Positions 1 to 51,569 of a stretch of 64,000 nucleotides of DNA are shown here, one piece after another; position 1 is the first letter of the stretch, and each line of letters begins with the position of its first letter. The stretch is from an uncultured Chloroflexia bacterium (GTDB taxonomy: Bacteria; Chloroflexota; Dehalococcoidia; GIF9; AB-539-J10), in assembly GCA_963769975.1 (NCBI GenBank), contig CAVYNS010000003.1, positions 384,434 to 448,433 of the forward strand, in the 5' to 3' direction. Below the pieces are notes generated by a model. That model was not told the origin of the DNA, ran no database searches, and saw only the letters and a list, made by a program, of their open reading frames with translations. The position numbers were made by a program, and so were the translations under genes.

Positions 1-295
1 ACCCGCCTCTTTCTTCCACAATCGGTACCACGGCTAAATAAGCATCGGGACAAAGGCGCCTGTTTAACTCCAGCTCCTGACGACAGAAGAAATGGCGTTT
101 CTCCAAAGTGGTGTAATCCAGATAGCCTAGGTTGACCGGCTTTTTAATCTTGTATACATATTCGCCGGTAAGGAAAATAAAGGACATCTGGGTCTGGACC
201 AGCTCTATCCTTGGTGGTTTGTGGGGATAGGCCTGGGGCTTAAGAAGAGCTTCAACTGTAGATGGTAATATTGACACCGTACTTCTCGCGAAATT

Positions 296-1591
296 TCAGG
301 GCCTTTCCCATACGGCTGCCATCCCTTGCCCGCCACCAATACACATGGTCTCCAAGCCACGATGCAGATTTCTACGCACCATATCATAGATAATGGTGAC
401 CGCTATCCTGGCTCCGGTGCAGCCAATAGGATGACCCATAGATATGCCACTACCATGAGGATTAACGTGGTCGAAATCCCAACCCAGCTCTTTCAGGCAA
501 CCTAGTACCTGAGCAGCAAAGGCTTCATTAAGCTCAATAACATCCAAATCTTTATTACCCAGCCCCGTCTTTTTGAGCACCTTCCTTACCGCCGGCACAG
601 GACCTAGTCCCATGTATTTGGGGTCTGTCCCGCCTGAAGCCCAGGCTCTCAGGGTTGCCATAGGTTCGAGCCCCAATTCTCTAGCTTTGTCTCTGGACAT
701 AAGCACTACGGCCGCCGCCGCATCATTAATTCCCGAAGAGTTACCGGCAGTGACCGTTCCATCTTTCCGGAATGCCGGAGGGAGCTTGGCCATTTTCTCC
801 ATAGAAGTGTCCATAGGCCTCTCATCGGTATCAAAAACAATGGGCTCGCCTTTTTTCTGAGGAATAGGAAAAGGAATTATCTCATCCTTAAATAAACCCT
901 CCACTATGGCTTGGCGCGCCCGAATATGGCTAAGACAGCCTATCTCATCCTGCTGTTGGCGAGTGAAGCCATATCTCTTGGCGATTTCCTCTGCGGTATT
1001 TCCCATATGATAGCCGTAGAATATTTCCCACAATCCATCATAGACCATGAGGTCTATAATCTCTCCCCTGGCTCCAACATCCATGCGATAGCCCCAGCGG
1101 GCTTTAGGGAGAAGATAGGGAGTATTGCTCATGCATTCCATGCCTCCAGCAACCACAACATCGGCTTCGCCCAGCATTATAGCCTCTGCTCCCAAAGTGA
1201 TAGCTTTTAAACCGGAGGCGCAGACTTTATTCACTGTAAAGGCGGGGGTTTCTTTAGGAATGCCTGCGTAGATACAGGCCTGGCGAGCTGTGTTCTGTCC
1301 TTGCCCGCCCTGAAGGACATTCCCCATAATTACTTCGTCAACCTGAACAGGATGCAAAGAAGAATCGTAAGCATAGTGCTTTTTCTCCAGCTCTATTATT
1401 CCATCAGACTTGAGTGCATCAGAGCCATAACCGAGTAATTTTTCACCGGACTTCGGCCTTAGTCCAGCTCGCTTAAGCGCCTCTTTGATTACCACGGCAC
1501 CCAGCTCAACAACAGATATATCTTTTAAAGAACCACCAAAAGCGCCAATAGCTGTCCGGGCACCACTGACGACAACTACTTCTTTTTGCAT
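296..1591 (-). CDS. acetyl-CoA C-acetyltransferase (thiolase II)
   Basis: 431 aa; the N-terminus VVVVSGARTAIGAFGGSL and the C-terminal catalytic Cys/His region are typical of biosynthetic thiolases. Confidence 0.85.
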   Translation of the reverse strand: MQKEVVVVSGARTAIGAFGGSLKDISVVELGAVVIKEALKRAGLRPKSGEKLLGYGSDALKSDGIIELEKKHYAYDSSLHPVQVDEVIMGNVLQGGQGQNTARQACIYAGIPKETPAFTVNKVCASGLKAITLGAEAIMLGEADVVVAGGMECMSNTPYLLPKARWGYRMDVGARGEIIDLMVYDGLWEIFYGYHMGNTAEEIAKRYGFTRQQQDEIGCLSHIRARQAIVEGLFKDEIIPFPIPQKKGEPIVFDTDERPMDTSMEKMAKLPPAFRKDGTVTAGNSSGINDAAAAVVLMSRDKARELGLEPMATLRAWASGGTDPKYMGLGPVPAVRKVLKKTGLGNKDLDVIELNEAFAAQVLGCLKELGWDFDHVNPHGSGISMGHPIGCTGARIAVTIIYDMVRRNLHRGLETMCIGGGQGMAAVWERP

Positions 1592-1683
1592 GCTCTAATC
1601 TCCTTTTACCAGAATTTCCTCTCAGATAGTGCAATCCACATATCCGAGCGAAGCCAAATCACAGTTCAGCACTTTAATACAGG

Positions 1684-2118
1684 CTATGAAGGTTTGAATG
1701 CCAAAAAGGTCGTCGAGTTTTCTCCTTCGCCCCTATGTAAGAACTCTACCTTAAGAGGAGTGCCAATTTTTATGGTTTCAGGCTTGTTCCCATCCACTCC
1801 TTCAATGCGAGCGACAACCCTCACCCCCTCCTCCAACTCTACGACTCCAGAAACATAAGGATGTTTCCTATCGTAACCTTCTTTTATCATGAGTGGAGGG
1901 CCTATAGCTATGCAGGTGAAGGCAACAAGCTTACCCTTTCCCTTCATCTCAACCCATCCCATTTCCGAGCCATAGCACTTAATGCAAATGGAGCGGGGAG
2001 GTACAGAAAGGACACCACATTTCTGGCACCTCGACCCCATCAGTTTATCCTCGCTGAGAAATCGCTCATAGGAAATATCATTAAAGGGCCTTACTTCCAT
2101 TGGCTGTGTCTCCTTCAT
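1684..2118 (-). CDS. DUF35-family Zn-ribbon/OB-fold protein (thiolase partner)
   Basis: 144 aa; has a CxxC...CxxC zinc ribbon followed by an OB-fold; sits between two thiolase-family genes and its stop overlaps the next gene. Confidence 0.7.
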   Translation of the reverse strand: MKETQPMEVRPFNDISYERFLSEDKLMGSRCQKCGVLSVPPRSICIKCYGSEMGWVEMKGKGKLVAFTCIAIGPPLMIKEGYDRKHPYVSGVVELEEGVRVVARIEGVDGNKPETIKIGTPLKVEFLHRGEGENSTTFLAFKPS

Positions 2119-3383
2119 TATCTTCTTTCAAGAATGGTAAGCGTACAAGTACCTCCTGTCCCCCCCAGGCTCTGGGTTGCCCCGATTCGCAAATCCTTAA
2201 TGGGAACTTGCCTTTCTCCAGCTTCACCCCTTAATTGTTTCCAAATTTCCACAAGTTGCCCTGTGCCTGTGGCTCCCACAGGATGACCTTTGCATTTAAG
2301 TCCCCCCGAGGTATTGATGGGCTTGGAGCCATCCAATCTTGTCAGGCCCTCCTCTACTGCTTTATATCCTTCCCCGGGCTTGAAAAAACCCAGGTCCTCG
2401 ATGTGAAGGATTTCAGCTATGGAGAAGCAATCATGCACCTCAGCAATTTGAACGTCTTCGGGCTTGAGCCCTGATAGCTCGTAAGCTTCTTGTGCTGCAT
2501 ATCTCGTGGCTTCAAAATAGGTAAGGTCTTCCTTGGCATGCAATCCCTTGCCACTCCCCTGCCCTATACCAACAACATATAGTGGGTTATCGGTGAAGTC
2601 TTTGGCTATTTTCTCGGCTACTAACAAAACACAACTTGCTCCGTCGCTTATGGGGCAGCAATCATAGAGATGCATCGGCCAGGCAACCACAGGATTAGCC
2701 CTGGGATCACGGAGGAATTCCTTCTCGTCCTTCCAGGTAGGTACAGGCTCCCCTTTATTTTTAGCCTTTTCAATTCTCTGATTCATAATATCGCGGATTG
2801 AGACATTAAACTGTGCCTTGGGATTGAGGCGAGCATTATTATGGCTTTTTATGGTGACATTCATTAGATGCTCCCGGCTGGCACCATATCTGGCAAAATA
2901 AGCAGTGGCCATGGCACCAAAAACACCCGGGAAGGTAAATCCCGCTTTTACTTCATAAGGACTAGCCGCCATGGCCAGGCCTTGTGTAACTTCTTCTGTG
3001 CTGCGTTTCGACATCTCCTCGACCCCACCAACTAGAACCACATCATAAAATCCTGAGGCTATAGCAAAAACCCCCTCTCTAAAAGCGAGGGCGCTGGAAG
3101 CGCAGGCACCCTCCGTCCGCGTTGCCGGCTTTGGCGTAAGCCCCAGCAAATCCGAGATTATCGGCCCCCAGTGTCCTTGATGTACAAAAAAATCGTTCGT
3201 GAAATTCCCCAAATAAAGGGCATCAATATCTTTGGGGTCTATCCCTTTATCCACTGTGGAAAGCATTTCACGGAAAGCTTCAGCAAACAAGTACTTTGAG
3301 TCCTTGTCGCTAAACATGCCGAATTTCGACATCCCTGCACCCACCACAGCTACCCCCCTTCCCAATTTTCTTCGCCCTCGCAT
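2118..3383 (-). CDS. thiolase-like protein (SCP-x type / HMG-CoA-synthase-partner thiolase)
   Basis: 421 aa; GVAVVGAGMSKFG N-terminus with active-site Cys and His characteristic of the archaeal-type thiolase / DUF35 complex. Confidence 0.75.
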   Translation of the reverse strand: MRGRRKLGRGVAVVGAGMSKFGMFSDKDSKYLFAEAFREMLSTVDKGIDPKDIDALYLGNFTNDFFVHQGHWGPIISDLLGLTPKPATRTEGACASSALAFREGVFAIASGFYDVVLVGGVEEMSKRSTEEVTQGLAMAASPYEVKAGFTFPGVFGAMATAYFARYGASREHLMNVTIKSHNNARLNPKAQFNVSIRDIMNQRIEKAKNKGEPVPTWKDEKEFLRDPRANPVVAWPMHLYDCCPISDGASCVLLVAEKIAKDFTDNPLYVVGIGQGSGKGLHAKEDLTYFEATRYAAQEAYELSGLKPEDVQIAEVHDCFSIAEILHIEDLGFFKPGEGYKAVEEGLTRLDGSKPINTSGGLKCKGHPVGATGTGQLVEIWKQLRGEAGERQVPIKDLRIGATQSLGGTGGTCTLTILERR

Positions 3384-6280: not shown

Positions 6281-7993
6281 ATGAATTTAAAGAAGCTTAT
6301 CTCTGTGGCTAGAGGGGAAACACCGGCTGATTTGCTCCTGAAAAATTGCCGGATAGTAAATACTTTTATCGGAGAAATAGAGCAAGGCAACGTAGCCATC
6401 TATGACGATAGGATTGCCGGCGTAGGGGATTATGATAATGCCAAGGAAATTATAGATTTACAAGGCCGGTTTTTAGCTCCCGGGCTGATTAACGGGCATA
6501 CGCATATAGAAAGCTCTATGCTTCACCCGGCAAGGTATGCTCAAGCCGTGGTCACCAGAGGCACTCTGGCTGTGGTTACTGACTTACACGAAATCGCCAA
6601 CGTTTGTGGACCTGCAGGCATAAAATTTGTCATGGATTGGGCACGAAAGCTCCCACTGGATATGTTGTTCATGGCTCCGTCATGCGTGCCAGCAACCCAT
6701 CTGGAGACATCAGGTGCTCAAATCAGTTCCAAAGAAGTAAAGAAAATTCTAGCCTCCCCCAATGTAATTGGTCTGGGAGAGATGATGAACTTTCCCGGCG
6801 TAGTCAGCGGGGATGAAGAGGTTTTGCAGAAGATCGGTGCCTCTCAGGGCAGAGTTATTGATGGACACGCTCCGGGACTCAGTGGTAAAGAACTGAATGC
6901 TTACTTGTCCGCTGGCATTCTTTCCGACCATGAATCCACTACCCTGGAGGGAGGAAAGGAGAAGTTGCGCCGGGGCATGTACCTCATGATTCGAGAAGGC
7001 TCTTCAGAAAAGAACTTGGATGCCCTTCTGCTTCTGGTTACCGACAATACTTATAAAAGATGCTTCTTCGTGGTGGATGACCGTAGTTGCTCGGATTTAC
7101 TTCGGGAAGGCGATATTGACGCTGTGGTCCGAAAGGCTATCAACCAAGGTCTGGAGCCAGTTCGGGCAATTCAAATGGCAACGATTAATACTGCCGAGTA
7201 TTTCAGACTCCATGACAGAGGAGCCATTGGTCCGGGTTATATGGCCAATCTCATAACCATCACCAACCTGGCTAAACTAGAGATAGACATGGTGTTTTAC
7301 CAGGGAAAGCTAGTAGCAAGTCAAGGCAAGCTCTTGTCCTCCTTGCCTCCTGTTACTCTGGAGCTAAAAGACACGGTACGCATCAAGCCCATTATGGTGA
7401 AATCGTTGTCATTGCGAGCGAAGCAAAGCAATCTCAGTGAGGAAAGCTACCCGGTTATCGAAATCATCCCCGGACAGATAGTCACCAAAAAGACAATAGA
7501 AGAGATAAAAGTTGTGAATGGGACACTTATGCCCGATGTGGAAAGAGATATTCTAAAGCTGGTGGTGGTGGAAAGACACAAGGCTAGCGGCAATATCGGC
7601 TTGGGACTGGTCAAGGGATTTGGCTTGAAAAAAGGAGCATTAGCCTCATCAGTGGCTCACGACTCTCACAACATAATAGCGGTGGGCACCAATGACCTCG
7701 AAATCCTCAAGGCAATTGAGGAAATTAATAGGCTGCAAGGCGGGCTGGTTGTTTGCGCCGACCTGGAAATTCTCGCTTCTTTACCGTTGCCTATCGCCGG
7801 CCTCCTTTCACCGGAGCCGCTCGATGTGGTCGTATCCCAGTATGAAATTGTTGAGAGGGCTGCTGCCAGCCTGGGCAACTTACCTCCAGCTCCATTTTCT
7901 ATCTTATCTTTCCTGGCTCTGCCTGTGATTCCCGAGCTCAGGTTGACCGACTTAGGCTTAGTGGACGTGGTAGAGTTTAAGTTGCTCAAGTAG
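6281..7993 (+). CDS. ade: adenine deaminase
   Basis: 570 aa amidohydrolase with the HTHIES metal-binding motif and adenine-deaminase C-terminal domain; contains an in-frame copy of a palindromic-repeat arm at 7406-7433. Confidence 0.85.
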   Translation: MNLKKLISVARGETPADLLLKNCRIVNTFIGEIEQGNVAIYDDRIAGVGDYDNAKEIIDLQGRFLAPGLINGHTHIESSMLHPARYAQAVVTRGTLAVVTDLHEIANVCGPAGIKFVMDWARKLPLDMLFMAPSCVPATHLETSGAQISSKEVKKILASPNVIGLGEMMNFPGVVSGDEEVLQKIGASQGRVIDGHAPGLSGKELNAYLSAGILSDHESTTLEGGKEKLRRGMYLMIREGSSEKNLDALLLLVTDNTYKRCFFVVDDRSCSDLLREGDIDAVVRKAINQGLEPVRAIQMATINTAEYFRLHDRGAIGPGYMANLITITNLAKLEIDMVFYQGKLVASQGKLLSSLPPVTLELKDTVRIKPIMVKSLSLRAKQSNLSEESYPVIEIIPGQIVTKKTIEEIKVVNGTLMPDVERDILKLVVVERHKASGNIGLGLVKGFGLKKGALASSVAHDSHNIIAVGTNDLEILKAIEEINRLQGGLVVCADLEILASLPLPIAGLLSPEPLDVVVSQYEIVERAAASLGNLPPAPFSILSFLALPVIPELRLTDLGLVDVVEFKLLK

Positions 7994-33161: not shown

Positions 33162-33467
33162 TTGGAGGGGCAGATGAAAGCAATAATAACGAGTATTATG
33201 GTAGCCATTGTACTAGCTTCAATCTTTTCCTTGCCGGCTCTAGCCCAAGAAAACAGTACCATCACCATCACTATGACAGGAGCCAATGAAATTTCCATTA
33301 GCCTGGATAAGACACAATGGCCTCTCGGGAACGTGGCTTCAAACACAGAATATGAGACAAGCCCGCCCATAGAGTGGTGCACACTGACCGTACAGGGCAA
33401 TTGTAATGTAAATACCTTTATTGTAGGGGATGATGCTAAATGGGATTGCGCTCACACAATAACATAG
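33162..33467 (+). CDS. small secreted protein (signal peptide); C-terminus DCAHTIT
   Basis: 101 aa; hydrophobic N-terminus ending ALAQE; its stop codon lies inside repeat copy A. Confidence 0.5.
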   Translation: MEGQMKAIITSIMVAIVLASIFSLPALAQENSTITITMTGANEISISLDKTQWPLGNVASNTEYETSPPIEWCTLTVQGNCNVNTFIVGDDAKWDCAHTIT

Positions 33468-33512
33468 AAATGCTACCATTCAGGGTGTGTGTTTGAGGTG
33501 ACAAGACAGGCG
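33444..33512. repeat. mosaic intergenic repeat family, copy A
   Basis: acaataacatagaa ... ttcagggtgtgtgtttgaggtgacaagacagg; shared with 35521-35660, 36378-36515 and 56585-56760. Confidence 0.6.
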
Positions 33513-33550
33513 GTTGTGCAATTTCACACTTCGCTATGCTATGGCTCTGG

Positions 33551-34972
33551 TTAAACAGTGACCTTTATCAGCCAGACATCATAGTCCCCGTACGAAGATG
33601 TGGAACCGGCAATGATGTATCCTCCATCTGAGGTTTGCTGGACTGAGTAGCCATAGTCGTCACCTGAACCGCCAAAGGTCTTGTTCCACGCCAAATTTCC
33701 TGAAGAATCGGCCTTTATCAGCCAGACATCCCCACCGCTATACCAGGACAACGCCGTGTAACCGGCAATGATGTAGCCTCCGTCCGAGGTTTGCTGGACT
33801 GAGTGGCCATAGTCACAAGATGAACCGCCAAAGGTCTGGTTCCACGCCAAATTTCCTGAAGAATCGGTCTTTATCAGCCAGACATCACTACAGCCAGCCC
33901 CGTAGGAATATGTGTTAGCGATAATGATGTATCCTCCGTCCGAGGTCTGCTGCACGGAGTCGCCTTCGTCATCCAGGGAACCGCCAAAGGTCTTGTTCCA
34001 CGTTTCATTTCCTGCAGAATCTGTCTTTATCAGCCAGACATCACGACTGCCAGCCCCGTAGGAATCTGTGCAACCGGCAATGATGTATCCTGCATCCGAG
34101 GTTTGCTGAACCGAGTACCCCTCGTCATAACCTGAACCGCCAAAGGTCTTGTTCCACGCCAGATTTCCTGAAGAATCCGTCTTCATCAGCCAGACGTCCC
34201 TATCGCCAGCCCCGTAGTATTGTGTGGAACCGGCAATGATGTATCCTCCATCCGAGGTTTGCTGAACTGAGTACCCCTCGTCATAACCTGAAGCGCCAAA
34301 GGTCTTGTTCCACGCCAGATTTCCTGAAGAATCCGTCTTCATCAGCCAGACATCTAAAACGCCACCCTCGTATGAATATGTGTAACCGATAATGATGTAT
34401 CCTCCGTCCGAGGTTTGCTGGACCGAGTAGCCATAGTCATAATCTGAACCGCCAAAGGTCTTGTTCCACGCCAAATTTCCTGAAGAATCTGTCTTTATCA
34501 GCCAGACATCAACATTGCCAGCGCCGTAGGAATCCGTGTAACCGGCGATGATGTATCCTCCGTCCGAGGTTTGCTGGACTGAGTAGCCCCGGTCAGTACC
34601 TGAACCGCCAAAGGTCTTGCTCCATGCTACTTCAGGATTATAATAGGTAGTAGCCCTGAAATTAGCGGCGATGTTCTTATCCGAGTCCATGGTAATGGCA
34701 ATACTGGATGTGTTGCCCGACGCACTACCAGTCCAGTGGTCAAAAGTATAACCACTAGCAGGGCTGGCTGTTAGTGTCACCTGTGCACCAGATTCATATT
34801 GGCCACCTGAAGGGGAGACCGAGCCTGCTCCTATGGGGTCAACGACTGTGGTAAGCTTGTAAGTCTCGGCAGAAGCTGGTCCCTCCCATGGTTTGAAAAC
34901 AAATAAGACTATCGCTACGATAATAGCTATGGTGCAACCTACGATGATTCCTGCCAGCTTTTTCTTACTCAT
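33551..34972 (-). CDS. membrane-anchored protein with an InlB-B-repeat-like domain and ~8 beta-propeller (SBBP-like) repeats
   Basis: 473 aa; N-terminal TM helix, [12 protein letters not shown] Ig-like segment, then ~48-aa tandem units ([28 protein letters not shown]). Confidence 0.7.
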
Positions 34973-35520: not shown

Positions 35521-35660
35521 GGGATTGTGGGGACACAATAACATAGAACTTTTGCCGTTCAGCGTGCGCGCTTAATGTCGCATAATCACAATACATCACT
35601 CCCAGTTCGTGTAATGAAATAACAAAACAGGCAATTGTTACCCGAACTGCACGAAATATC
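35521..35660. repeat. mosaic intergenic repeat family, copy B (includes a degenerate gene 3' end ...DCGDTIT*)
   Basis: gattgtggggacacaataacatagaacttttgccgttcag ... aataacaaaacaggcaattgttacccgaactg. Confidence 0.6.
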
Positions 35661-35777
35661 CTTTTGTTACATCAGAGGTAACAACTCAAGCTTCTCTTGT
35701 CATAGCTGCACATTATCGACTAATGTTCAATCTTGTTGCAGTCATGAGGCGGCAAAATTGACTTAGTCCATTGAGTG

Positions 35778-36377: not shown

Positions 36378-36515
36378 GGAGTCACAAAACGCTGCTTTGT
36401 GCAGTGCGCCACAATCGGGATTGTGGGGACACAATAGCATAGAATTTTTGCCGTTCAGGGTGTGTGTTTGAGGTAACAAAACAGACTATTGTTGCCCGAG
36501 TTGAACAATACGTCA
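36378..36515. repeat. mosaic intergenic repeat family, copy C (with a 24-codon ORF ending ...DCGDTIA*)
   Basis: gtcacaaaacgctgctttgtgcag ... gattgtggggacacaatagcatagaatttttgccgttcagggtgtgtgtttgaggtaacaaaacagactattgttgcccgagttg. Confidence 0.6.
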
Positions 36516-39072: not shown

Positions 39073-39349
39073 ATCCTAACCCTGCTCTCCATGATAGTCA
39101 ATCTCCTCAGGTAACCAGCCCTTCTTCCAAGAATTCCAGCCCGGTCGGTTCCTGCTCCAACGCTCACTGCTGCACATAACTGACAAATGTGCAATCTCGC
39201 GCCTGCTCGATAAAAATACATAAGGCAAAATTTCAAGAACTAGCTATTATGTCGGTAATCCCAGGGGGATAGGTGTCAAAATTAACGATGAAAAAACCTC
39301 ACATTTCGGGGAGACATCTGTGCTGGGCAGATAGGCTAAAAGTGTTATA

Positions 39350-40249
39350 ATGGCAAGTAGCAACAGACTCAAGTGTTTAGTTACGAGCGACGAGGTAGCC
39401 TATATGAGCATATCGTCCAAATCATCATTAGAACTGGACGCAGCGAAGAGTCTCATGTGGTGGATAACACATGAGACTCTTGTTCCAATTGACAAGCCAG
39501 ATTGCAGCCAACCATCGAGGCCGGGAGGGAACCCTGATTTTATCTTCCAGGACTCGAGAAAGCGTAAGTATGTATTGGAAGTGACTCGGCTGCTAACTTC
39601 AAAGTTACGCAACCTCGAAAATACGGTAGCTGCCCAAGTTTGTGCTCCAGTAGAGTACCAAATTCCTGGTACCTACGGGTTGCATATCCACTTGACCGAT
39701 CCTCTTGGGCGGGGCAAGATCGCCCCCGAGGTTTTGAAGCAAACAGCGGAGGAAATATCTAGAATATTAAAAGATGGCACTTTGCAGGATACTCAACAAT
39801 TGAGCGCAGGGTTTATCCTTTGGAAGGCAAGGAGCGAAGGCAGTAAGCTAGTACCTTGGATTACCTCGCCGGAACTACCATTTGACCTAACTGATGCCCA
39901 TCCCATCGCCAAGGAACTGCGAAGTGTATTTGAGAAATTGATAGAGGAAGGTGATTTGAAGTTTCGAGGCTATGACCCGTACAGGCTCCTGCTTATTAAC
40001 ACTTCACAATCAGGATTGGACTTAAAATTCCATGCCGGAAGATTCAAGGATGGCAAAGGTATCTTGCTCACCTGGATGGATACTTTATGCCAGCGGATCC
40101 TCAACATCGATGCCATCTTCTTAGAACCCGGTATCAATGTCCGGTCAGCAGGAGGCAAAGTAATGGCAGGGCATAAATACGTTGAGAGCAAGTCTGGTCA
40201 CTACCTTGAGCTCTGGCATCGTAGTAGCGTTCCACCGCTTCTTATCTAG
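39350..40249 (+). CDS. hypothetical protein (299 aa)
   Basis: ORF only. Confidence 0.45.
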   Translation: MASSNRLKCLVTSDEVAYMSISSKSSLELDAAKSLMWWITHETLVPIDKPDCSQPSRPGGNPDFIFQDSRKRKYVLEVTRLLTSKLRNLENTVAAQVCAPVEYQIPGTYGLHIHLTDPLGRGKIAPEVLKQTAEEISRILKDGTLQDTQQLSAGFILWKARSEGSKLVPWITSPELPFDLTDAHPIAKELRSVFEKLIEEGDLKFRGYDPYRLLLINTSQSGLDLKFHAGRFKDGKGILLTWMDTLCQRILNIDAIFLEPGINVRSAGGKVMAGHKYVESKSGHYLELWHRSSVPPLLI

Positions 40250-42165: not shown

Positions 42166-43416
42166 TCAAACCGCCTCGTATCTCCTGACTTGCCGTCCTC
42201 TATCCGTTTTCTGGTACGAGTTCTTGATTAGTCCAATCTTCGCAAGTGGCGCTACCAGGCTTTCGAGTTCCTTCGCTGATATTGAGAGCCGCCGGTAAAC
42301 TTCCCGCTCCGGGACCGACCCGCCCTCAGCCCGCAAAAATTCTAGTAATTTAATCTCTTGAGCCTTGCCACTTGACGTTCCGAAGCTGGCGAATACTTCA
42401 GTTACGCTCGCTTCTAGATAGTTCCCCACTGCAATCGCCGCTTCTAGGTGGTCTACTGATATACTCTCTGACATCGTGTCTGCCGCATAGAGTAAAGCTA
42501 TCTTCCAAATGAAGTCCTGAATCCTGACAATAAGCGTGGGTATCAATCCCGGTTGCTGACAGCGCCGGTAATATTCGTGGTAGTATTCCTCAAACAGTGT
42601 GCTTGCCTCGTCTGAGATGGTTATCTCACCGTTGGGCACGTCCTCAGCCCAGCTACGAATCTGATTCAACTCCCGAACTAGCTCATTGCGCTTGTCCAGG
42701 TCAACCTTTGGCGGATTCGGCATGGGGTCTTTTGGCAAGCCATAAAAGTAACACCAGCGATTTGCGAAGCCGCCGTATATGTCCCTCTCGGTGAGCGCCT
42801 TTTGTAGCCAATCCTGTGTCGTGCCCGCCATTATGGAGAGGAAAGGCTCTTTAGCTGGCTTCACGTCTTTTTGATGCACTGGCGGATTTAACAGGTCTGG
42901 AGAATCGTACAACTCGTTGAGCGCTGGGATAATGTTACCTAGCGAATCTTGTTTGGCCTTTGCCAGTAAAGATAGCAGCTCGCCAAGCTGTATGAGCCTG
43001 ACTTTCCGCTCTCCGGCCAGTTCATCCAGCAAGCCTTCATAGCTTCTGATTCCCCTAAGTGTTTTGAATGGCGGACTTGGGTCATCCTCTGAGTACGCGT
43101 GAAGCATGTCCAATACGCTGCGGCCCCTTGACCATGTGGTGTCTTTGCGTGTTAGCCCGCTTCTACCTACAAGGCAGTTAAAGAAGTTAGGGAATAGCCT
43201 TGTTGCGTGATACGTAAAAAGGCGCCTGCCGATGGTACACCCAAAGACTTGAAGAAACGTGGCATAGTGGAAGGCATCTGCCGCCTCGGTAGTATTTGCT
43301 ACCATATCTCGATAGTCTTTCAATAAGCCTCGCCATGCGATAGCGGGTATTTCCAGACTGGCCGGAGTAGTAATCGGCTTTGAGAGTGCCTTTTCCGTAA
43401 TTATTATCTCTGGCAT
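42166..43416 (-). CDS. primase-associated protein (DUF3987-like C-terminal domain family)
   Basis: 416 aa with no P-loop; overlaps the upstream primase gene by 13 nt; arrangement typical of integrative-element replication modules. Confidence 0.4.
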   Translation of the reverse strand: MPEIIITEKALSKPITTPASLEIPAIAWRGLLKDYRDMVANTTEAADAFHYATFLQVFGCTIGRRLFTYHATRLFPNFFNCLVGRSGLTRKDTTWSRGRSVLDMLHAYSEDDPSPPFKTLRGIRSYEGLLDELAGERKVRLIQLGELLSLLAKAKQDSLGNIIPALNELYDSPDLLNPPVHQKDVKPAKEPFLSIMAGTTQDWLQKALTERDIYGGFANRWCYFYGLPKDPMPNPPKVDLDKRNELVRELNQIRSWAEDVPNGEITISDEASTLFEEYYHEYYRRCQQPGLIPTLIVRIQDFIWKIALLYAADTMSESISVDHLEAAIAVGNYLEASVTEVFASFGTSSGKAQEIKLLEFLRAEGGSVPEREVYRRLSISAKELESLVAPLAKIGLIKNSYQKTDRGRQVRRYEAV

Positions 43417-44369
43417 AGCTGCCCCCCTGTCGCTAGTAAATCGTCCAACCCCTTAAACTCTGCGTTCCAATCAGCCTCAAAGGTGCGTATTCTACGCTTG
43501 ATTAGGCAAGCAATTAAGGCGTTCTTATGGAGATTGACAACAGGATAAGATAGCTTGTCCATGTCAAAGGCAACAATCGCCCTTGCTGGTGCGAGTTCAC
43601 GGACTATCGGTATAATGCCCGGCCAATTGCCAACACCAGGCACGGCCAAAACAACACGCTCCAGCCTCAGAGCGGCAATATCGGCTTTAATCGGCCCTTC
43701 GGTAATCCACATTTCGCTCTTAGTGGACACTGGCCCTGCTACATGTACCGGCGCTCCTGGAGAACAGCCGGCGAAGTAGCCGCGAGAGCTTAACCACCTA
43801 TAGCGGCTACCGTTCTCTGTGTTGTCACACCGGATTTGCAATCCTATAATACGGCGCTTAGTGTCCCTTACGGGTATCAGAATCCCGGCTGGGCCTGAGA
43901 GCCTAACTTCCTCAAACCCAAGCCAGAAGCCCGGGACGCCGATTAGCTTGAATCCCTTTGCTTTGAGACTTTGCACTACGCCGCGCCTCCCGTTTACCGG
44001 GAATGATTTGTACTCTAGTCTGAGAATCTCATCGTCCGTTAGTCCCCGGCGTTGTAAGTTTGTGCGGTGGGTATCTGATAGTGACAGTTCTACGAGCAGG
44101 GCGTGGTAAGCTCTGTCAAGCACGTCTGGCGCCGCTTTTGGTATTTGCTTTGCATCAGGTCTAGGCTTAGGTAGCGGTAATGACTTCATGGTGTCCAGTT
44201 TGTGTATCCAACCTGCACCTTTCTTGCCTGCGGGTTTATCACTCTCAATGCGAGCGCAGATAGCGGCTTCCCCATCCTGTGATATAAGACACCAATCAGG
44301 CTTACCGCATACCGGGCACAGGTTATGCTTGGTAACACGAATCCACTTGTTAGCCGTTGCCGTGGTCAT
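43404..44369 (-). CDS. zinc-ribbon + TOPRIM primase (P4-type/DnaG-like)
   Basis: 321 aa; CPVCGKPDWC ... AAIC zinc ribbon, then a TOPRIM with conserved E (ITEGP) and DxD (AFDMD). Confidence 0.6.
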   Translation of the reverse strand: MTTATANKWIRVTKHNLCPVCGKPDWCLISQDGEAAICARIESDKPAGKKGAGWIHKLDTMKSLPLPKPRPDAKQIPKAAPDVLDRAYHALLVELSLSDTHRTNLQRRGLTDDEILRLEYKSFPVNGRRGVVQSLKAKGFKLIGVPGFWLGFEEVRLSGPAGILIPVRDTKRRIIGLQIRCDNTENGSRYRWLSSRGYFAGCSPGAPVHVAGPVSTKSEMWITEGPIKADIAALRLERVVLAVPGVGNWPGIIPIVRELAPARAIVAFDMDKLSYPVVNLHKNALIACLIKRRIRTFEADWNAEFKGLDDLLATGGQLCQR

Positions 44370-45320: not shown

Positions 45321-45593
45321 CGATGAATAAAACTGTTATCCTCAGCGTTTTACTTGTGCTAAGCTCAGCGTTCTGGATTTCTGGCACCAGGGCTTCAATC
45401 TCAGAAGTTGCACAACATAGTTTAGTTAGCGTTCCCTGAGACTTACCTGCACATTATGGCTGATTGTTACCTTAGGATATCAGCTTATCAACCAATAGGC
45501 ACAGGCTTGAGACCACAGGTCGTCTTAGTACGTTGTCATAAGGTAATAAATTCCTTATAATAAACTCACCTGGCCTGAGAGGGAAGAGGCAAA

Positions 45594-48317
45594 GTGGTTG
45601 ACTACAGCATAGAGGTTTCAGTTACCGAGGGTACGACAAATACTGAGCGTGGAAACTTGTTAGTAGAGTTGATGCGCGATGTATTTGATGCGACTAACCA
45701 TACCAGTGGTCCGTCTATTAGGGTCACTGGTATGGAGATAGATACTACTGCTACTCATAATGTCACCGGCGAGAAGATATATGCCGAGTGCAAGGCTTAT
45801 AGAGAACCTATACCAGCAGATACTATTTCAAAACTATTGGGCAACGTTTTTCTTAAGAACGTAGACCAGGGATGGCTGGTAACTACATCTAAGCTTTCTA
45901 AGGACGCCGAGGGATCAAAGGAAGAGTGGGAGAAGAAACCTCCAGAAGAACGTCGTCGATTACAGGTCTACAATCCTCCTAGACTGCTAACTCTGTTAAT
46001 AGCTTCAAACCGTATCTTTGATCCAGCCAAGATAACAGCTACCTCAGGAACGGAGCAGGGTAACTGGTATTTTCTTCTGACTAATCTTGGTCGTTACTGG
46101 GCAAAGTTGGTAGTAGAGGCAGGCATACCGAGTAGAGTCATCGTCTATAATGCACAGACAGGCGTGTTAGTAAACGATGCGGAGCTTTTGAAAAAACTCA
46201 AACTGACTGACACTAGCCTCCGCGATTTCAATTGGCCAATTCCTTCTCCCAATGGTTCAGGGGTGGGAGAGTTGCTTGCCTACTTATCGGAAACGGTTGT
46301 TGATGTCGCGACTGGTGATACTTGGGCGGATTATCGTCCTGCCAGACCTCAAGACTTTGTGGGTCGGCATGATCTTCAAGATACTATGCGAGATTTATTT
46401 CTAGGTATTAGGAATAGAAGTACTAACACTCGTTTATTCTCAATAACTGGACCGTCGGGATGGGGTAAAAGTTCTTTAATTGCGAAACTACGGGACCGCT
46501 GTAGTAATAAGGCAAATCGTAAGAAATTTTACATGACTGCATTTGATATGAGAGCCGCCAAATCGTCAAACTATGTTTCCGCTGCTCTCCTAAGGTGTTT
46601 CTCGTCAGCGATCCAACGAAATTTTATTCTTCGGCCTGTTATGCCACTGCAAGTGGGAGCTCCCACAACGCCTCTTGAAAGTGAATCCTTACAAGATTGT
46701 TTACAACAGCTTAAAGATAAGAACAAAGTACTCATCTTAGTTTTTGATCAGTTTGAGGAGGTACTTACTAAACCCGAATTGAGGCAGCTATTTGATAGAC
46801 TTCGGTTACTCGCTTTGTCAGTGGATGCACAAAAAGAGAATCTTGTCCTTGGCTTTGCTTGGAAAAGCGATGCTTTTCTTCCACAAGATCACCCCGCGTA
46901 CTATCTTTGGCATCAACTCAAGGACAGACGTCTTGATCTGGCTGTGCCACGTTTTGGTTCAAAGGACGTCTCGCAAGCCCTAACACACTTCCAAACCGAA
47001 TTGGGACAACGCTTGAATCCTGTTTTACGCTCACAATTGGTACAGCATTGTCAAGGTTTTCCTTGGCTACTCAAAAAGCTGTGTATTCATGTTCTTAACC
47101 TCGTAAGACGTGATCTAAGTCAGCTGCAGGTGCTAGAGCGAGGACTAGATGTACGAGGACTGTTCGAAGCAGATTTAAGTGGGCTTTCCAGTAAGGAAAC
47201 ACTGTGCCTTAAAGAAATCGCGCGGTTGGCACCTGTTGAATGGGTACAAATTGTCGAACAATTCGGGAATGATACATACACTTCACTACTAGGTAAACTG
47301 TTGATAGTTCGTAGTGGCGACAGGCTGAACCCATATTGGGATATTTTCGGAGACTATCTGCGCACCAATGAAATCCCACATGTGCCTGTGTCTTTTCTGC
47401 CAGGAACTGAAATCCGAACTTTAGCAAGAGCAGCTGTTATTACTGTTATGAACAGGCCAGCAGGAGTCACATTAGAAAAACTGAGCACATCGCTGTCTAT
47501 AAATAGTAGGTCAGCAGGTAATGTTGTTCGAGATTTACAGATGTTTAGTCTTGCAGAGAGAAAAGGTGATCATATCGTTTCAACGATAGCTATCAAGGAG
47601 ACAAGAGATGCAGTCGCTGAGATCGCAAGACTAATCGCTCGCGCCTTAAATAACCACACCTTTACAATTATACTTCGTAGGAATGTAGCAAAGGGTTCAG
47701 AGATTACTGAACAGGATTTGCTTGGGTTCTTTAATGAGGCATTCCGGTATGCGTCACTCCGTGATGTCACAAAGAGAATGTACACACTCCGACTCGCCAA
47801 ATACTTGACGGCAACCCGCTTTCTCGAGCGTGTTCCTAGCGTATGGATACTCATTGATGAATTGACGGGACAGTTGATATTAATGCCAAGAGTTAGAGGT
47901 GCAGGTGAGTTTCTAGGAGATGCTCCTCCTGGAAGAGTTTTGGAGGTGCTGCAGAAGCTGTCGGAGTCTCCTGTGCCGAGAGCAGTCTTGAATAAGTCTC
48001 GTCTGAGGAACGCGACAGCATGTGCAATAATGCTGGAGCTCGCAAGCACACGTGATGGCATCGTTTACAGGCTAGAAGATACTAAGGACATGGAGGCTTC
48101 ACTAGTTGGAGCAGTAACCAACACTAGGTCTTTTAAGATAGTTTCAGAGCTTATCTGCAAATCTCCCAACATATCAGCAACGGAAATCGGTAAAACTCTG
48201 TCTGCCCACCTTGATTTGCCTTGGAGTGAGGCATCAAACCTTCGCCGTGGTAACGCGCTTCGTAGGTGGGTTCGGTGGTCGCAAAGTCAGACTTCCACAC
48301 GATCGGAGCCTGTATAG
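45594..48317 (+). CDS. STAND-type P-loop NTPase with an N-terminal Mrr-like PD-(D/E)xK nuclease domain (Avs-like antiviral STAND candidate)
   Basis: 907 aa; N-terminus GMEID ... EKIYAECKAY (D ... ExK); Walker A GPSGWGKSS; Walker B LILVFDQFEE; ~450-aa C-terminal helical region. Confidence 0.75.
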   Translation: MVDYSIEVSVTEGTTNTERGNLLVELMRDVFDATNHTSGPSIRVTGMEIDTTATHNVTGEKIYAECKAYREPIPADTISKLLGNVFLKNVDQGWLVTTSKLSKDAEGSKEEWEKKPPEERRRLQVYNPPRLLTLLIASNRIFDPAKITATSGTEQGNWYFLLTNLGRYWAKLVVEAGIPSRVIVYNAQTGVLVNDAELLKKLKLTDTSLRDFNWPIPSPNGSGVGELLAYLSETVVDVATGDTWADYRPARPQDFVGRHDLQDTMRDLFLGIRNRSTNTRLFSITGPSGWGKSSLIAKLRDRCSNKANRKKFYMTAFDMRAAKSSNYVSAALLRCFSSAIQRNFILRPVMPLQVGAPTTPLESESLQDCLQQLKDKNKVLILVFDQFEEVLTKPELRQLFDRLRLLALSVDAQKENLVLGFAWKSDAFLPQDHPAYYLWHQLKDRRLDLAVPRFGSKDVSQALTHFQTELGQRLNPVLRSQLVQHCQGFPWLLKKLCIHVLNLVRRDLSQLQVLERGLDVRGLFEADLSGLSSKETLCLKEIARLAPVEWVQIVEQFGNDTYTSLLGKLLIVRSGDRLNPYWDIFGDYLRTNEIPHVPVSFLPGTEIRTLARAAVITVMNRPAGVTLEKLSTSLSINSRSAGNVVRDLQMFSLAERKGDHIVSTIAIKETRDAVAEIARLIARALNNHTFTIILRRNVAKGSEITEQDLLGFFNEAFRYASLRDVTKRMYTLRLAKYLTATRFLERVPSVWILIDELTGQLILMPRVRGAGEFLGDAPPGRVLEVLQKLSESPVPRAVLNKSRLRNATACAIMLELASTRDGIVYRLEDTKDMEASLVGAVTNTRSFKIVSELICKSPNISATEIGKTLSAHLDLPWSEASNLRRGNALRRWVRWSQSQTSTRSEPV

Positions 48318-48454
48318 ACCCCTTGCTGAACTTGTGTACAAACAAGGTCTTCATTAGGTTTATTAGGTGCTCGGTGAGGGTGAAATTAATATAGCTTATT
48401 CATGGTTAGGTAGCTGACACATTTCTAATAATCCGTCCCGACGTCACAATATGA

Positions 48455-48500
48455 CGAATTGTTACGCTAGAGGTAACAAAACAGGCTTTTGTGACTTTAA
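48455..48500. repeat. mosaic intergenic repeat family, partial copy E
   Basis: ttgttacgctagaggtaacaaaacaggcttttgtgac matches the 3' module of copies B and C. Confidence 0.45.
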
Positions 48501-48567: not shown

Positions 48568-49329
48568 ATGGCACGAGAAACTTGGCATCAACCAACTATG
48601 GTAGAGAAGCGTGAAACCAGTATTAATGGGCAAACCATCACATATACAGTCAAGCGAAGCCTTAGGGCAAGGCATGTTCGGCTCGAGGTGAGACGGCAAA
48701 CGGGGCTTACGGTAGTTGTTCCTCACTCTTACAAGATTGGGCAACTCCCTAGACTTCTAGAATCGAAGGAACGATGGATCTCAAGTAGCTTGGCAAGATG
48801 TAGCAATTTCCAATCGCCTTATGCCGAGAAGGAACTCGGGAGTGGCGATACTGTCCCCTATCTTGGCCGAGACTTGAAGCTAGTCAAGCGGGAAAACCAC
48901 AGTGAAGTTGATAGTGTAACGCTAGAGGGAGATACACTGGCAGTGAGTCACGGATTATTTAAAAATGGTATCTTGGAGTTGGCTTTGGAACAGTGGTATC
49001 GGGCGGAGGCTGCTAGGCTGATAAACGAGAGAGCAGATAGGCTGAGTTCTCAGATGGGCATTCACTGCAAACGAATTGTCATACGAGGTCAAAAGACTCG
49101 CTGGGGCAGCTGCTCTCATAAGAAAAATCTTAGCTTTAACTGGAAACTAATAATGGCGCCAGAGCCTGTGATCGACTATGTTGTTATCCATGAACTTGCC
49201 CATCTGAAAGAGATGAATCATTCAAAGAGGTTCTGGGAATTGGTAGCTCAACACTGTCACAGATGGCGGGAGTATAAGAAGTGGCTCAGGCAACACGAGG
49301 CAAACCTTACTGCGAAACTCTGTCCCTAG
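48568..49329 (+). CDS. DUF45/YgjP-family metal-dependent hydrolase (WLM/SprT-like HExxH)
   Basis: 253 aa; HELAHLKEMNH zinc-binding motif. Confidence 0.75.
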   Translation: MARETWHQPTMVEKRETSINGQTITYTVKRSLRARHVRLEVRRQTGLTVVVPHSYKIGQLPRLLESKERWISSSLARCSNFQSPYAEKELGSGDTVPYLGRDLKLVKRENHSEVDSVTLEGDTLAVSHGLFKNGILELALEQWYRAEAARLINERADRLSSQMGIHCKRIVIRGQKTRWGSCSHKKNLSFNWKLIMAPEPVIDYVVIHELAHLKEMNHSKRFWELVAQHCHRWREYKKWLRQHEANLTAKLCP

Positions 49330-49431
49330 AAATAGCCTTGATTGCACATTTTGGACATTTGTTATTGAAACAAATGCCCAAAATAGGGCCGAGAGGGGCG
49401 TATCAGTTCGTCCTGAAGTGCTTCAGTCGCG

Positions 49432-50517
49432 CTACAGGTCAAACTCTGTCCAGACCGCTCCGTGATCCGACGCTGATGCGGTGATGCCGTTGTCCTGCAC
49501 TTCCGGCCAAGCAATTACTTCCCCGTTGGAGTACTTTGCAACATCAAAAATACCTCTGCGTTCGACTCCGGCCTGTCTGCACGCATTCTGGAGCGGTTCC
49601 GAGACAAGAATGAAATCAAGCTGCTGATTCACATCGTAATGGTATGTCCATCTGTCCTCAGGTTTTGCGATTTTCAGCGCCAGTACATCTTTTAGCTCTC
49701 TCACATTCATCAGCGGCGATAGTGACTTGCTGTCAGGCGCCGCGTTGAAATCTCCGAGTACCACGACTTTGTCTCTCGTCAGGTCATGATTCCGCTCTCT
49801 AATAATGTCACCCACCCGTTGTGCTTGACGCAGTCTTTTGGCATCGTTTTGCTCCTGTGAGCCGTATCCTTGACTCTTGAAATGATTGACGAAAAGGTAC
49901 AGGAAATCGTTGTCTGGGAGCTTGATTGTGACTTCAAGACAGTCGCGAGAGAAAATGCGTGAACGTCCAACTTTCTCAAACATGTGGGTCCTGATATCGC
50001 ACATCTCGAAGCGAGAAAGGAGCGAGACATCAATTCCACGGGGATCAAATGCGTCAATCAGCATACTGTACGGATACCTCTTTCTAATGAATTGAGAATT
50101 GAATATATCAAGGGTGGGTTTGCTCTCTACCTCAATCACGCTGATGATGTCCGCGCTCACAGAGTTGATGACTTTCGCAGTGTTCTTTCTTGTGATTTCG
50201 GTGAAGTCGTCGGCTTTGAATGCGATGAAGCCACCCCAGTCATCCCTGCCTTTCGCTTTTACGCCGACGACGTTGAACTTCCGGTCACGCTTGAATAGTT
50301 TCTGGCGCACTTCATTTATGTCGATGAAATCCTTTAGTTCTTCATAGAGACCAAGAATCTTCTTGCCATCGTAGGCCTTCTTCTCCAACTCCACTTGTAG
50401 TTGGTCAACTTTGGCGAGTATTTCATCCCCATCTCTCCGCTCTTCAAAATTAAAGACTTTTGCGCGGCGAAATAAGTTCTCCGCATTGAACGTCGCAATC
50501 TTTAGAGTGTCACGCAT
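49432..50517 (-). CDS. endonuclease/exonuclease/phosphatase (EEP) family protein
   Basis: 361 aa; N-terminus KIATFNAENLF; motifs VLGDFNA and SDHGAVWTEF. Confidence 0.75.
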   Translation of the reverse strand: MRDTLKIATFNAENLFRRAKVFNFEERRDGDEILAKVDQLQVELEKKAYDGKKILGLYEELKDFIDINEVRQKLFKRDRKFNVVGVKAKGRDDWGGFIAFKADDFTEITRKNTAKVINSVSADIISVIEVESKPTLDIFNSQFIRKRYPYSMLIDAFDPRGIDVSLLSRFEMCDIRTHMFEKVGRSRIFSRDCLEVTIKLPDNDFLYLFVNHFKSQGYGSQEQNDAKRLRQAQRVGDIIRERNHDLTRDKVVVLGDFNAAPDSKSLSPLMNVRELKDVLALKIAKPEDRWTYHYDVNQQLDFILVSEPLQNACRQAGVERRGIFDVAKYSNGEVIAWPEVQDNGITASASDHGAVWTEFDL

Positions 50518-50636
50518 CTATTGTCCTCCAGTTGAGCTTACGCCGATTCAGTATACCATAGCGGCGTTAGACTTACCGAACCTGGTTCAAAACCGTGTAC
50601 TACAAGGCCCGGGGCACGAATCGCCCAAATGTTAAG

Positions 50637-51569
50637 CTAGATATTGTTCGCGTTTCCTTGGAATATTTGCTTTCTACAAATCAAGGTGACGTCTCGGACT
50701 AGGCCTAAAGTTCTGGGAATTCGCTCTATTATAGTTGGTATTGCCTGAACGATTCCGAGTCCTTGAGTATAATCTTGTGGCTCCAGAAAACCTCCTGGAT
50801 ATCGTGTATAACTCTCGTGAGGGAAGGTTAACACTCCAAAGATATAACACTGACCTGCTGCCTGACCAAATTTCACCGAGGAATAGGTAACAATTGATTC
50901 TTTGTACTCAGGTAGGTATTCTGCAAAAACGGTTTTGACTTCATTTTCCTTCTGCTCTAATAATGGATGTGTTGTGAAGAGTGCGTCAGCAACTCTGATC
51001 AGTCCCTCTATGCCGAGTACACGGGGGGACGAGTTCATGGGCAGCTTGGCTAGCCGCTGTTGATCACTGTTAACTAGTTTCTTCACTTGGGTGATGGCTG
51101 TCTTGTAGTCTCGGTTATCAAGTGAGTTCAGTATACTCATCATCTCGTTGCCGGGCTTTTCTTCAATGATCTTCAATAGAGGTTGTGGAGTTCGATGAGT
51201 TGTGAGCAGTTCCTTAATGGTTACATCACCAATCGATAAGCAGAAAGCTTTCATGGCCTTTTCAATTGCTTGCTGGATGTGATAAACGCTCAGAGCAAGT
51301 TCCCCATGTTGAAAGAGTAAATTTGCCGCCCTATGATCTGCTTCTCCAGCGCCTAGGTATTTATCAGCAATGTCCAAAGAAGACGAATCTCGCCTTATCA
51401 CGACATGCTTGAGGGCACGCTTTACGAGTACTTCTGTTCGGAGCGAGTCTATCTGGTTAGCTTTCGGCATCAACTTCTTGATACCCGGCTTAACCCTAAG
51501 CCATAGCGTCTCGATTAGTTCATTTCCATTTTCGTTTGCCATTTGGTCGCCCGGAATGAATAACATCAT
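50637..51569 (-). CDS. hypothetical protein (310 aa)
   Basis: ORF only; follows the EEP gene on the same strand. Confidence 0.45.
   Translation of the reverse strand: MMLFIPGDQMANENGNELIETLWLRVKPGIKKLMPKANQIDSLRTEVLVKRALKHVVIRRDSSSLDIADKYLGAGEADHRAANLLFQHGELALSVYHIQQAIEKAMKAFCLSIGDVTIKELLTTHRTPQPLLKIIEEKPGNEMMSILNSLDNRDYKTAITQVKKLVNSDQQRLAKLPMNSSPRVLGIEGLIRVADALFTTHPLLEQKENEVKTVFAEYLPEYKESIVTYSSVKFGQAAGQCYIFGVLTFPHESYTRYPGGFLEPQDYTQGLGIVQAIPTIIERIPRTLGLVRDVTLICRKQIFQGNANNI

Follow-up and report, generated by a model that had tools for sequence, protein, structure and literature searches.

A compact Mrr-nSTAND1 protein with a putative tandem winged-helix sensor, a probable anti-phage system on an apparently mobile single-gene cassette in Dehalococcoidia

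The stretch of DNA considered here, hereafter the window, comprises 64,000 nucleotides (nt) of contig CAVYNS010000003.1 from an uncultured bacterium placed in the Dehalococcoidia (Chloroflexota). Its subject is a gene at 45594-48317 on the plus strand, an uninterrupted open reading frame (ORF) of 907 amino acids (aa) that begins with GTG, has a ribosome-binding site of the GAGG type ahead of it and lies opposite a strand rich in stops. Because its product contains Pfam domains and motifs that are conserved in 161 relatives, this is a genuine gene, not a chance ORF; its coordinates are those given in an initial annotation made from the letters of the sequence, and the close homologues in the alignment share the position of the GTG start. 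The gene is preceded by a sigma-70-like promoter, kept in every cassette copy, whose -35 (TTGTCA) and -10 (TATAAT) elements are invariant columns in an alignment of five copies of the surrounding cassette. The features of the locus, all on the plus strand, are as follows.

45450..48465, plus strand: single-gene cassette of ~3.0 kb, made up of the promoter, the gene and a conserved 148-nt 3' tail
45450-45470, plus strand: left terminal direct repeat, CACATTATGGCTGATTGTTAC
45533-45561, plus strand: sigma-70-like promoter, TTGTCA-17-TATAAT (11/12 match)
45594..48317, plus strand: coding sequence of the Mrr-nSTAND1-winged-helix protein, 907 aa, GTG start (from the ORF, Pfam and the homologue alignment)
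45594..46013, plus strand: PD-(D/E)xK (Mrr_cat) nuclease, the presumed effector, alpha/beta, residues 1-140
45741-45743, plus strand: catalytic D50
45786-45794, plus strand: E65-C66-K67
46014..46313, plus strand: small beta-rich linker domain, residues 141-240 (from AlphaFold2 secondary structure)
46314..47378, plus strand: STAND nucleoside triphosphatase (NTPase) core, consisting of a nucleotide-binding domain (NBD), a helical domain (HD) and a winged-helix domain (WHD), residues 241-595
46449-46475, plus strand: Walker A, GPSGWGKSS
46731-46760, plus strand: Walker B, LILVFDQFEE
47379..48314, plus strand: putative sensor of four tandem winged-helix units, residues 596-665, 666-756, 778-828 and 829-907
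48445-48465, plus strand: right terminal direct repeat, CACAATATGACGAATTGTTAC, overlapping a small hairpin (CGTCA-CAATA-TGACG)

At the N-terminus, residues 43-108 match Pfam Mrr_cat with 31.8 bits, above the cut-off of 21, and include the E65-C66-K67 motif. Conservation was counted across 161 aligned relatives, each 860-970 aa long: D50 is kept in all 161, E65 in 160 and K67 in 159, so that the D...ExK motif of the Mrr-type PD-(D/E)xK module described in the initial annotation is near-invariant. The central region matches nSTAND1 (PF20703) over residues 247-488 with 42.9 bits against a gathering cut-off of 27.1, and AAA_16 is also above its cut-off in this protein. The P-loop NTPase had been recognized from GPSGWGKSS (residues 286-294) and LILVFDQFEE (residues 380-389), and both motifs bear this out: K292, D385, E388 and R446 are present in 161/161 relatives, as is P490, which together with G488 (160/161) forms a GxP motif in the helical domain. 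An AlphaFold2 model built from 25 homologues (mean predicted local distance difference test score 84.9) divides the core into a P-loop NBD (241-452), an HD (453-530) and a WHD (531-595). This order, combined with Walker A, hhhhFDQFEE Walker B and GxP motifs that are all invariant or nearly so, is the STAND layout, and by sequence the NTPase belongs to the STAND superfamily and its nSTAND1 clade. PAB2304, Apaf-1, ORC/Cdc6, MalT and ZAR1 are fold neighbours of the core, and BrxC ATPases are also among the closest.

Two other placements of the NTPase were weighed and rejected. The NACHT Walker B signature is D[GAS]hDE (bioRxiv 10.1101/2022.07.19.500537), whereas D385 is followed by no small residue here (D385-Q-F-E-E), and no Pfam NACHT match was obtained at E <= 1. 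As for the MalT/LuxR/AfsR regulators, the NCBIfam MalT model reaches 11.5 bits against a cut-off of 537, Pfam detects no LuxR or SARP domain, and a match to AfsR is insignificant (E = 0.29 across 60 residues at the P-loop); with nSTAND1 as its best family, the NTPase stands apart from housekeeping regulators, as had been anticipated.

The C-terminal region, described initially as long and helical, has a different character in the model: residues 596-907 (312 aa) form four helix-helix-helix-hairpin units, that is, tandem winged-helix domains and not TPR repeats. The fold matches of this array are the winged-helix domains of ArsR, MarR, Z-alpha, SelB, ScpB and BrxA. Each unit carries a mild net positive charge, amounting to about +8.6 over the whole array.

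The protein is a member of a large family. A word-indexed search yielded more than 1,090 homologues, nearly all of 890-950 aa with Mrr_cat and nSTAND1; in precomputed Pfam annotation, Mrr_cat is found in essentially all top matches and nSTAND1 in nearly all homologues, and those that have been named are mostly labelled 'restriction endonuclease' by NCBI. An exhaustive HMMER search with residues 240-907 returned 571 clusters at 50% identity, and since nearly all of them align from about residue 240 of ~900-aa proteins, the Mrr-nSTAND1-winged-helix family is, judged from these alignments, discrete and fixed in architecture. At least 247 species are positive (one genome per species), including Dehalococcoidia, Paenibacillus, Listeria, Clostridia, Poribacteria, Acidobacteriota and Verrucomicrobia as well as Alpha-, Beta- and Gammaproteobacteria, Acinetobacter and Pseudomonas among the latter. 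The distribution is patchy, extending over more than 10 phyla at ~35% identity; a few copies are plasmid-borne, and the phage genomes searched contained no homologue.

Divergence within the family is uneven. Pairwise identity averages 0.45-0.50 in the nuclease and in the NBD-HD-WHD core, but falls to 0.25-0.31 in the four winged-helix units and to 0.29 in the beta linker; the C-terminus diverges at about double the rate of the remaining protein. These figures describe a conserved engine with what appears to be a diversifying periphery, a pattern of conserved core and diversifying sensor that has also been reported for the SNaCT domain of bNACHT proteins (bioRxiv 10.1101/2022.07.19.500537). Exchange of domains is confined to the C-terminus, where some relatives of 1,020-1,144 aa keep Mrr and nSTAND1 and carry a different sequence. 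Two of these large relatives, P0248 (1,144 aa) and P0270 (1,134 aa), have the nSTAND1 core followed by three HA repeats (PF03457) in place of the winged-helix array, with Mrr_cat detected in P0248 and none in P0270 at E <= 0.001, an arrangement best described, from their domain matches, as sensor swapping inside the clade. The HA (helicase-associated) domain is thought to bind nucleic acid. Effector swapping was considered and rejected, as the forms with short N-termini (120-166 aa, no Mrr_cat match) are N-terminal truncations of the same protein.

The gene is carried by a sharply bounded cassette. At 81-96% nucleotide identity, the cassette recurs in at least eight unrelated contexts (the window, L001/L002, L003, L089/L090, L091, L095, L096 and L098), with unrelated flanking DNA in each, and its nearest copies are in metagenome-assembled genomes (MAGs) of Dehalococcoidia. 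Homology stops abruptly at 45450-45457 on the left and at 48462-48468 on the right of the window copy, where 21-nt imperfect direct repeats are located. The repeat pattern has two matches in the window against 0.01 expected, its left-end motif is kept at the left junction in seven contexts, and the consensus across copies reads (C/A)ACAwwnTGGCTnnwTGTTACC at the left and GTCACAAnnTGACGnAnTGT at the right; the flanking repeats noted initially are therefore present in a sharper sense, as the boundaries of a 3.0-kb cassette. Because L001 shares 2.7 kb with window positions 21-2783 at 93% identity, it represents a related genome with the cassette at another site. Nor is the 3' tail a generic element, as all five of its metagenome matches carry the Mrr-STAND gene. 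On these comparisons the cassette is mobile. It contains no recombinase gene, and a metagenome search for an empty site gave no match. By inspection, the terminal repeats do not fit GTTRRRY/RYYYAAC, and identity with integron attC sites was rejected; ends of the IS200/IS605 type were weighed and are not supported.

Repeats are also dispersed between genes of the window. A hairpin, TTGTTAC-N7-GTAACAA, is present in two exact copies, at 35664-35684 and at 48459-48479, the second of which straddles the right end of the cassette, and three matches with at most two mismatches are found against 0.13 expected. A 25-nt motif resembling the left terminal repeat lies at 35703-35727, 39167-39191 and 45444-45468, and a 76-nt intergenic repeat occurs three times (33442-33517, 35521-35596 and 36417-36492). 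Together with a series of short ORFs on the minus strand (35-39 kb), these dispersed repeats hint at an array of cassette-like units.

The genomic neighbourhoods of the family were surveyed at 78 loci, where crude gene calls gave 540 neighbour proteins within 5 kb. All-against-all BLAST of these 540 proteins revealed no conserved partner gene, which argues for a single-gene system; the largest neighbour cluster covers eight loci and matches mad3/mad8-like P-loop proteins. Defence genes recur around the gene. In Verrucomicrobia (L033), Deltaproteobacteria (L065) and Latescibacterota (L074), a BREX operon encloses it in the same orientation, with the arrangement BrxC..PglX-[gene]-BrxHI/PglZ and ORFs that overlap or nearly abut. 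Elsewhere it adjoins a type I restriction subunit (L011, L034 and L064) or a type IIG enzyme (L063 and the metagenomic locus L090), begins 39 nt after the end of a type III restriction endonuclease gene (L075 and L076), or follows HmaC in three loci of Poribacteria (L008, L009 and L021). PDC-S02 nucleases and DpdF-like helicases are recurrent neighbours, and Pfam searches of 18 loci identified integrases, C5-methylases, TIR, NB-ARC, HepT/MNT and AEP-TOTE among the adjacent proteins.

Side observations were made at some of these loci. BrxC, PglXI, BrxHI and PglZ of L033 (1602-18405) and their equivalents in L065 and L074 have 44-66% protein identity between MAGs of three phyla; in L065, a PDC-S02 nuclease gene separates brxC from pglX. 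This BREX variant and the Mrr-STAND gene look like a co-travelling composite defence locus. In L088, a Dehalococcoidia-like contig, a 516-aa RVT_1 reverse transcriptase (6297-7847) is encoded directly upstream of a homologue with 77% identity; it could belong to a group II intron or be defence-related.

The association with defence genes can be expressed as a rough figure. Loci linked to BREX or restriction-modification (RM) number at least nine of the 78 (BREX 3, type I 3, type III 2, type IIG 1) against ~1.2 expected (binomial P ~3e-6), a count that is a lower bound, as it is based on single PADLOC hidden Markov model matches for 20 of the 540 neighbours and not on full DefenseFinder systems, and a P value that is indicative and not exact, because the 20 were hand-picked and some loci are related. 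The scanned neighbours were chosen as representatives of recurrent clusters or for their large size, and the background rate of defence genes, 1.53%, is that of Lee et al. 2026 (PMC13581612). When Hma, PDC-S02 and DpdF-like neighbours are added, the number rises to at least 17 of 78 loci. Lee et al. regard a STAND clade as defence-associated if at least 50% of its members carry a defence effector such as Mrr (PMC13581612); here, at least 159 of 161 members possess the Mrr-type D...ExK motif, and an excess of defence genes within 5 kb is seen in the rough PADLOC-based test (at least 9/78 versus 1.53%). The defence context predicted for homologues in the initial annotation is borne out to this extent.

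Intact nuclease and NTPase motifs, lack of a partner, patchy spread, plasmid copies, embedding in BREX and RM loci, and cassette mobility all support a role in defence. The gene is probably a stand-alone, single-gene system of the NLR-like (antiviral STAND) kind, directed against phages or mobile elements and transported on a small promoter-bearing mobile cassette, and the initial interpretation is supported, none of the three observations that it named as refuting having been made. Its compact nSTAND1-Mrr product, with a putative sensor of tandem winged helices, represents a known kind of anti-phage system in a variant yet to be characterised; the anti-phage activity of the family is one that we infer by analogy with its characterised relatives.

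A mechanism can be sketched on the templates of Avs3/4/7 and bNACHT11/25 (PMC13581612, PMC12169576 and bioRxiv 10.1101/2024.12.17.629029). The protein would idle as an auto-inhibited monomer until its variable winged-helix array, perhaps aided by the variable beta linker, engages an infection cue. Binding would release auto-inhibition and permit NTP-dependent oligomerisation through the NBD-HD-WHD core, which would juxtapose the Mrr domains to form an active DNase. The DNase would then cut DNA indiscriminately, and the infection would be aborted. With regard to the cue, a phage protein is somewhat more likely than nucleic acid. The rapid divergence of the winged-helix array favours a protein ligand, while its fold, its mild positive charge, the HA swap in relatives and the BREX/RM niche favour nucleic acid or a DNA mimic.

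Several points weigh against this stand-alone antiviral STAND reading. PADLOC-DB 2.0 does not recognise the protein, giving only weak P-loop and nuclease matches at E <= 1 (mad8, SspC and PDC-S02), and no paper testing the Mrr-nSTAND1-winged-helix family was found in the literature. Most loci, the window included, are without a recognised defence gene within 5 kb, and several copies reside among housekeeping genes, for example in L001, Geotalea (L083), P. elgii (L084) and L091. The enrichment P value uses hand-picked neighbours, a borrowed background rate and partly related loci. Moreover, oligomerisation and auto-inhibition are supplied by analogy, and the protein-sensing step may be wrong, because winged-helix arrays are classic nucleic-acid binders.

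The last of these points leads to the best-surviving alternative, in which the protein is an NTP-gated restriction-like enzyme: its winged-helix domains would bind foreign, modified or unusual DNA, its STAND core would assemble like ORC/Cdc6, and its Mrr domain would cut, so that it would be a type IV-like restriction enzyme on a STAND switch and not a protein-sensing abortive-infection receptor. The C-terminus does resemble DNA- and RNA-binding winged-helix domains and is mildly positive throughout residues 596-907, but winged-helix domains also make protein contacts, and no other part of the protein is as poorly conserved as the array (25-31% identity), which better fits a protein sensor in an arms race. 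The core has ORC/Cdc6 and BrxC ATPases among its nearest folds; however, likeness to ORC is common to all STAND proteins. The position after pglX in BREX operons or beside hsdR/res is where type IV enzymes (BrxU) occur, sister proteins trade the winged-helix array for three HA repeats, and the NCBI family name is 'restriction endonuclease', yet no conserved methyltransferase partner emerged from the 540 neighbours at 78 loci. On balance, this alternative is unlikely, if still a serious competitor. The same doubtful standing is given to the idea that the array senses nucleic acid or DNA mimics and makes the protein a restriction-like, NTP-gated reserve accompanying BREX and RM systems, and a similarly tentative place is accorded to the joint proposition that such a sensor is combined, in Dehalococcoidia, with movement of the cassette by a recombination system acting on the ~20-nt direct repeats.

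It has also been considered that the protein guards modification-based immunity, the winged-helix array serving as bait for DNA mimics such as Ocr and ArdA and the nuclease firing when BREX or RM is inhibited, according to the logic of PrrC and PARIS. All nine RM/BREX-linked loci hold modification-based systems, three phyla have the gene within a BREX operon, and the winged-helix surfaces are positively charged. However, the linked loci are nine of 78 (20 of 540 neighbours scanned), no such neighbour exists at the copies in the window, Geotalea, P. elgii and L001, and the proposal is speculative; it is judged very improbable. Least credible of all is a housekeeping or regulatory STAND protein of the MalT/AfsR kind with winged helices on promoters, or an inactive relic, as the C-terminal winged-helix domains, a weak match to the 'inactive REase' family NA-iREase1 (20 bits, below the cut-off of 27) and the many copies among housekeeping genes are set against an invariant D...ExK with Mrr_cat above cut-off, insignificant matches to MalT and AfsR, a patchy spread over >10 phyla at ~35% identity that includes plasmids, cassette-borne copies at differing sites even between close genomes, and embedding in BREX and RM loci.

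Among characterised proteins, the nearest analogues of the proposed antiviral STAND protein are bNACHT25 and bNACHT32 (clade 6), which likewise unite in one polypeptide a PD-(D/E)xK (Mrr-like) DNase, a STAND-type NTPase and a sensor that is not TPR. They are PD-(D/E)xK-NACHT proteins whose defence requires the nuclease (Kibby et al. 2022 preprint; PMC12169576), and differ in that the NTPase here is nSTAND1 and the sensor consists of four winged-helix units, as opposed to their NCH1 helical domain. At 639 aa, bNACHT11 is likewise a compact STAND immune protein, and its small C-terminal sensor, which lacks repeats and evolves fast, binds diverse phage proteins and drives oligomerisation (bioRxiv 10.1101/2024.12.17.629029); its NTPase is of another clade, its sensor has another fold, and its effector is a tiny N-terminal membrane-active one in contrast to the nuclease here. 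The compactness emphasized in the initial annotation thus stands as a description (~900 aa) but is not unusual in itself, with bNACHT11 at 639 aa and bNACHT25/32 as comparable precedents.

The annotation had also called the protein Avs-like. Avs3 and Avs4 are antiviral STAND proteins, as Gao et al. are said to have reported in 2022, and Avs3, Avs4 and Avs7 have lengths of roughly 1,500-2,000 aa. They share with the present protein the effector-NTPase-sensor layout and a nuclease effector, Mrr-like or Cap4 (PMC13581612). They are also single-gene, horizontally mobile and associated with defence islands, and oligomerisation upon ligand binding, with activation of the nuclease, may be expected here by analogy with them. 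They are, in contrast, much larger than the ~900 aa found here, and have a large TPR domain where this protein has a 312-aa winged-helix array; that length is below the 400-aa cut-off used for classifying sensors by Lee et al. 2026 (PMC13581612). Membership of Avs1-5 was rejected, as PADLOC-DB 2.0 and the PDB gave no sequence match to them and the sensor is not large and TPR-like; the PDB profile search produced no significant match and no Avs chain. The PADLOC-DB 2.0 library is presumed to include Avs1-5 models. The Avs-like description accordingly survives for layout and logic, and fails for sequence and for the fold of the sensor.

Two groups of restriction enzymes deserve comparison as well. 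The Mrr_cat catalytic domain with its D...(E/Q)xK motif is that of Mrr and type IV enzymes, while the domain order here, nuclease-NTPase-winged helix, is unlike that of Mrr, in which the winged helix is N-terminal and the nuclease C-terminal. Genes of the BrxU/GmrSD type share the niche of the family, being accessory nuclease genes within or beside BREX and type I/III RM operons, but BrxU is a DUF262/DUF1524 protein with no STAND switch and is unrelated to the Mrr-STAND family. Defence activity of their own has been demonstrated for genes embedded in multi-gene defence systems such as BREX, RM and Hma (bioRxiv 10.1101/2024.01.29.577857).

This comparison indicates where the interest of the family lies: embedding in BREX and RM loci and clean cassette mobility are noteworthy, whereas small size by itself is nothing new. 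Receptors of the STAND/NLR-like type form a major branch of bacterial immunity to phages, and those characterised detect phage proteins with large TPR or SNaCT/NCH sensors. Here, a widespread family joins a canonical Mrr effector to a compact, putative sensor of four winged-helix units, and is repeatedly nested in BREX and RM operons. The ligand of the array would tell whether bacterial NLR-like proteins sense nucleic acids or anti-restriction factors besides phage structural proteins; should it prove to be nucleic acid or a DNA mimic, the family would provide a bacterial NLR-like receptor switched on directly by foreign DNA or anti-restriction mimics. With ~900 aa and its own promoter, the gene is easy to clone and test, and a sharply bounded 3-kb cassette with no recombinase offers a clean case for the movement of a single defence gene in Chloroflexota.

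The surroundings of the gene in the window are less distinctive. Upstream are genes for DUF3987 (primase/helicase-like), DUF3854 and BFN-domain nuclease proteins, of which the adjoining DUF3987 (PHROG 'DNA primase') and DUF3854 genes (42166-44369, minus strand) are typical of integrative mobile elements. A mobile-element-like region had been suspected from the start; these two genes just upstream agree with it, while a Pfam scan of the 20 neighbouring ORFs (32178-55789) detected no integrase. A 299-aa ORF (39350-40249) matches nothing in Pfam, PADLOC, PHROG or PDB, so no integrase could be identified there either. Downstream, 48568-51569 encodes three proteins without a PADLOC match: a metallopeptidase resembling YgjP (E 1e-59), a nuclease/phosphatase of the Exo_endo_phos family and a 310-aa protein with a HEPN domain. 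Genes for YgjP-like and HEPN proteins are often found with restriction or toxin systems. Ten flanking ORFs had no PADLOC match, comparison of the window neighbours with PADLOC and PHROGs gave no defence match, the primase/helicase-like DUF3987 being the sole finding, and Rfam had no match in the whole window.

Further repeats are found upstream. The intergenic segment 40483-40865 holds 3-4 copies of a ~111-nt tandem repeat, up to 96% identical and rich in GAGCAGCT palindromic pieces. On the minus strand, a 473-aa ORF at 33551-34972 is composed mostly of six tandem repeats of 156 nt (52 aa) with 78-86% identity; it matches the InlB B-repeat/Flg_new_2 domain and probably encodes a repetitive surface protein.

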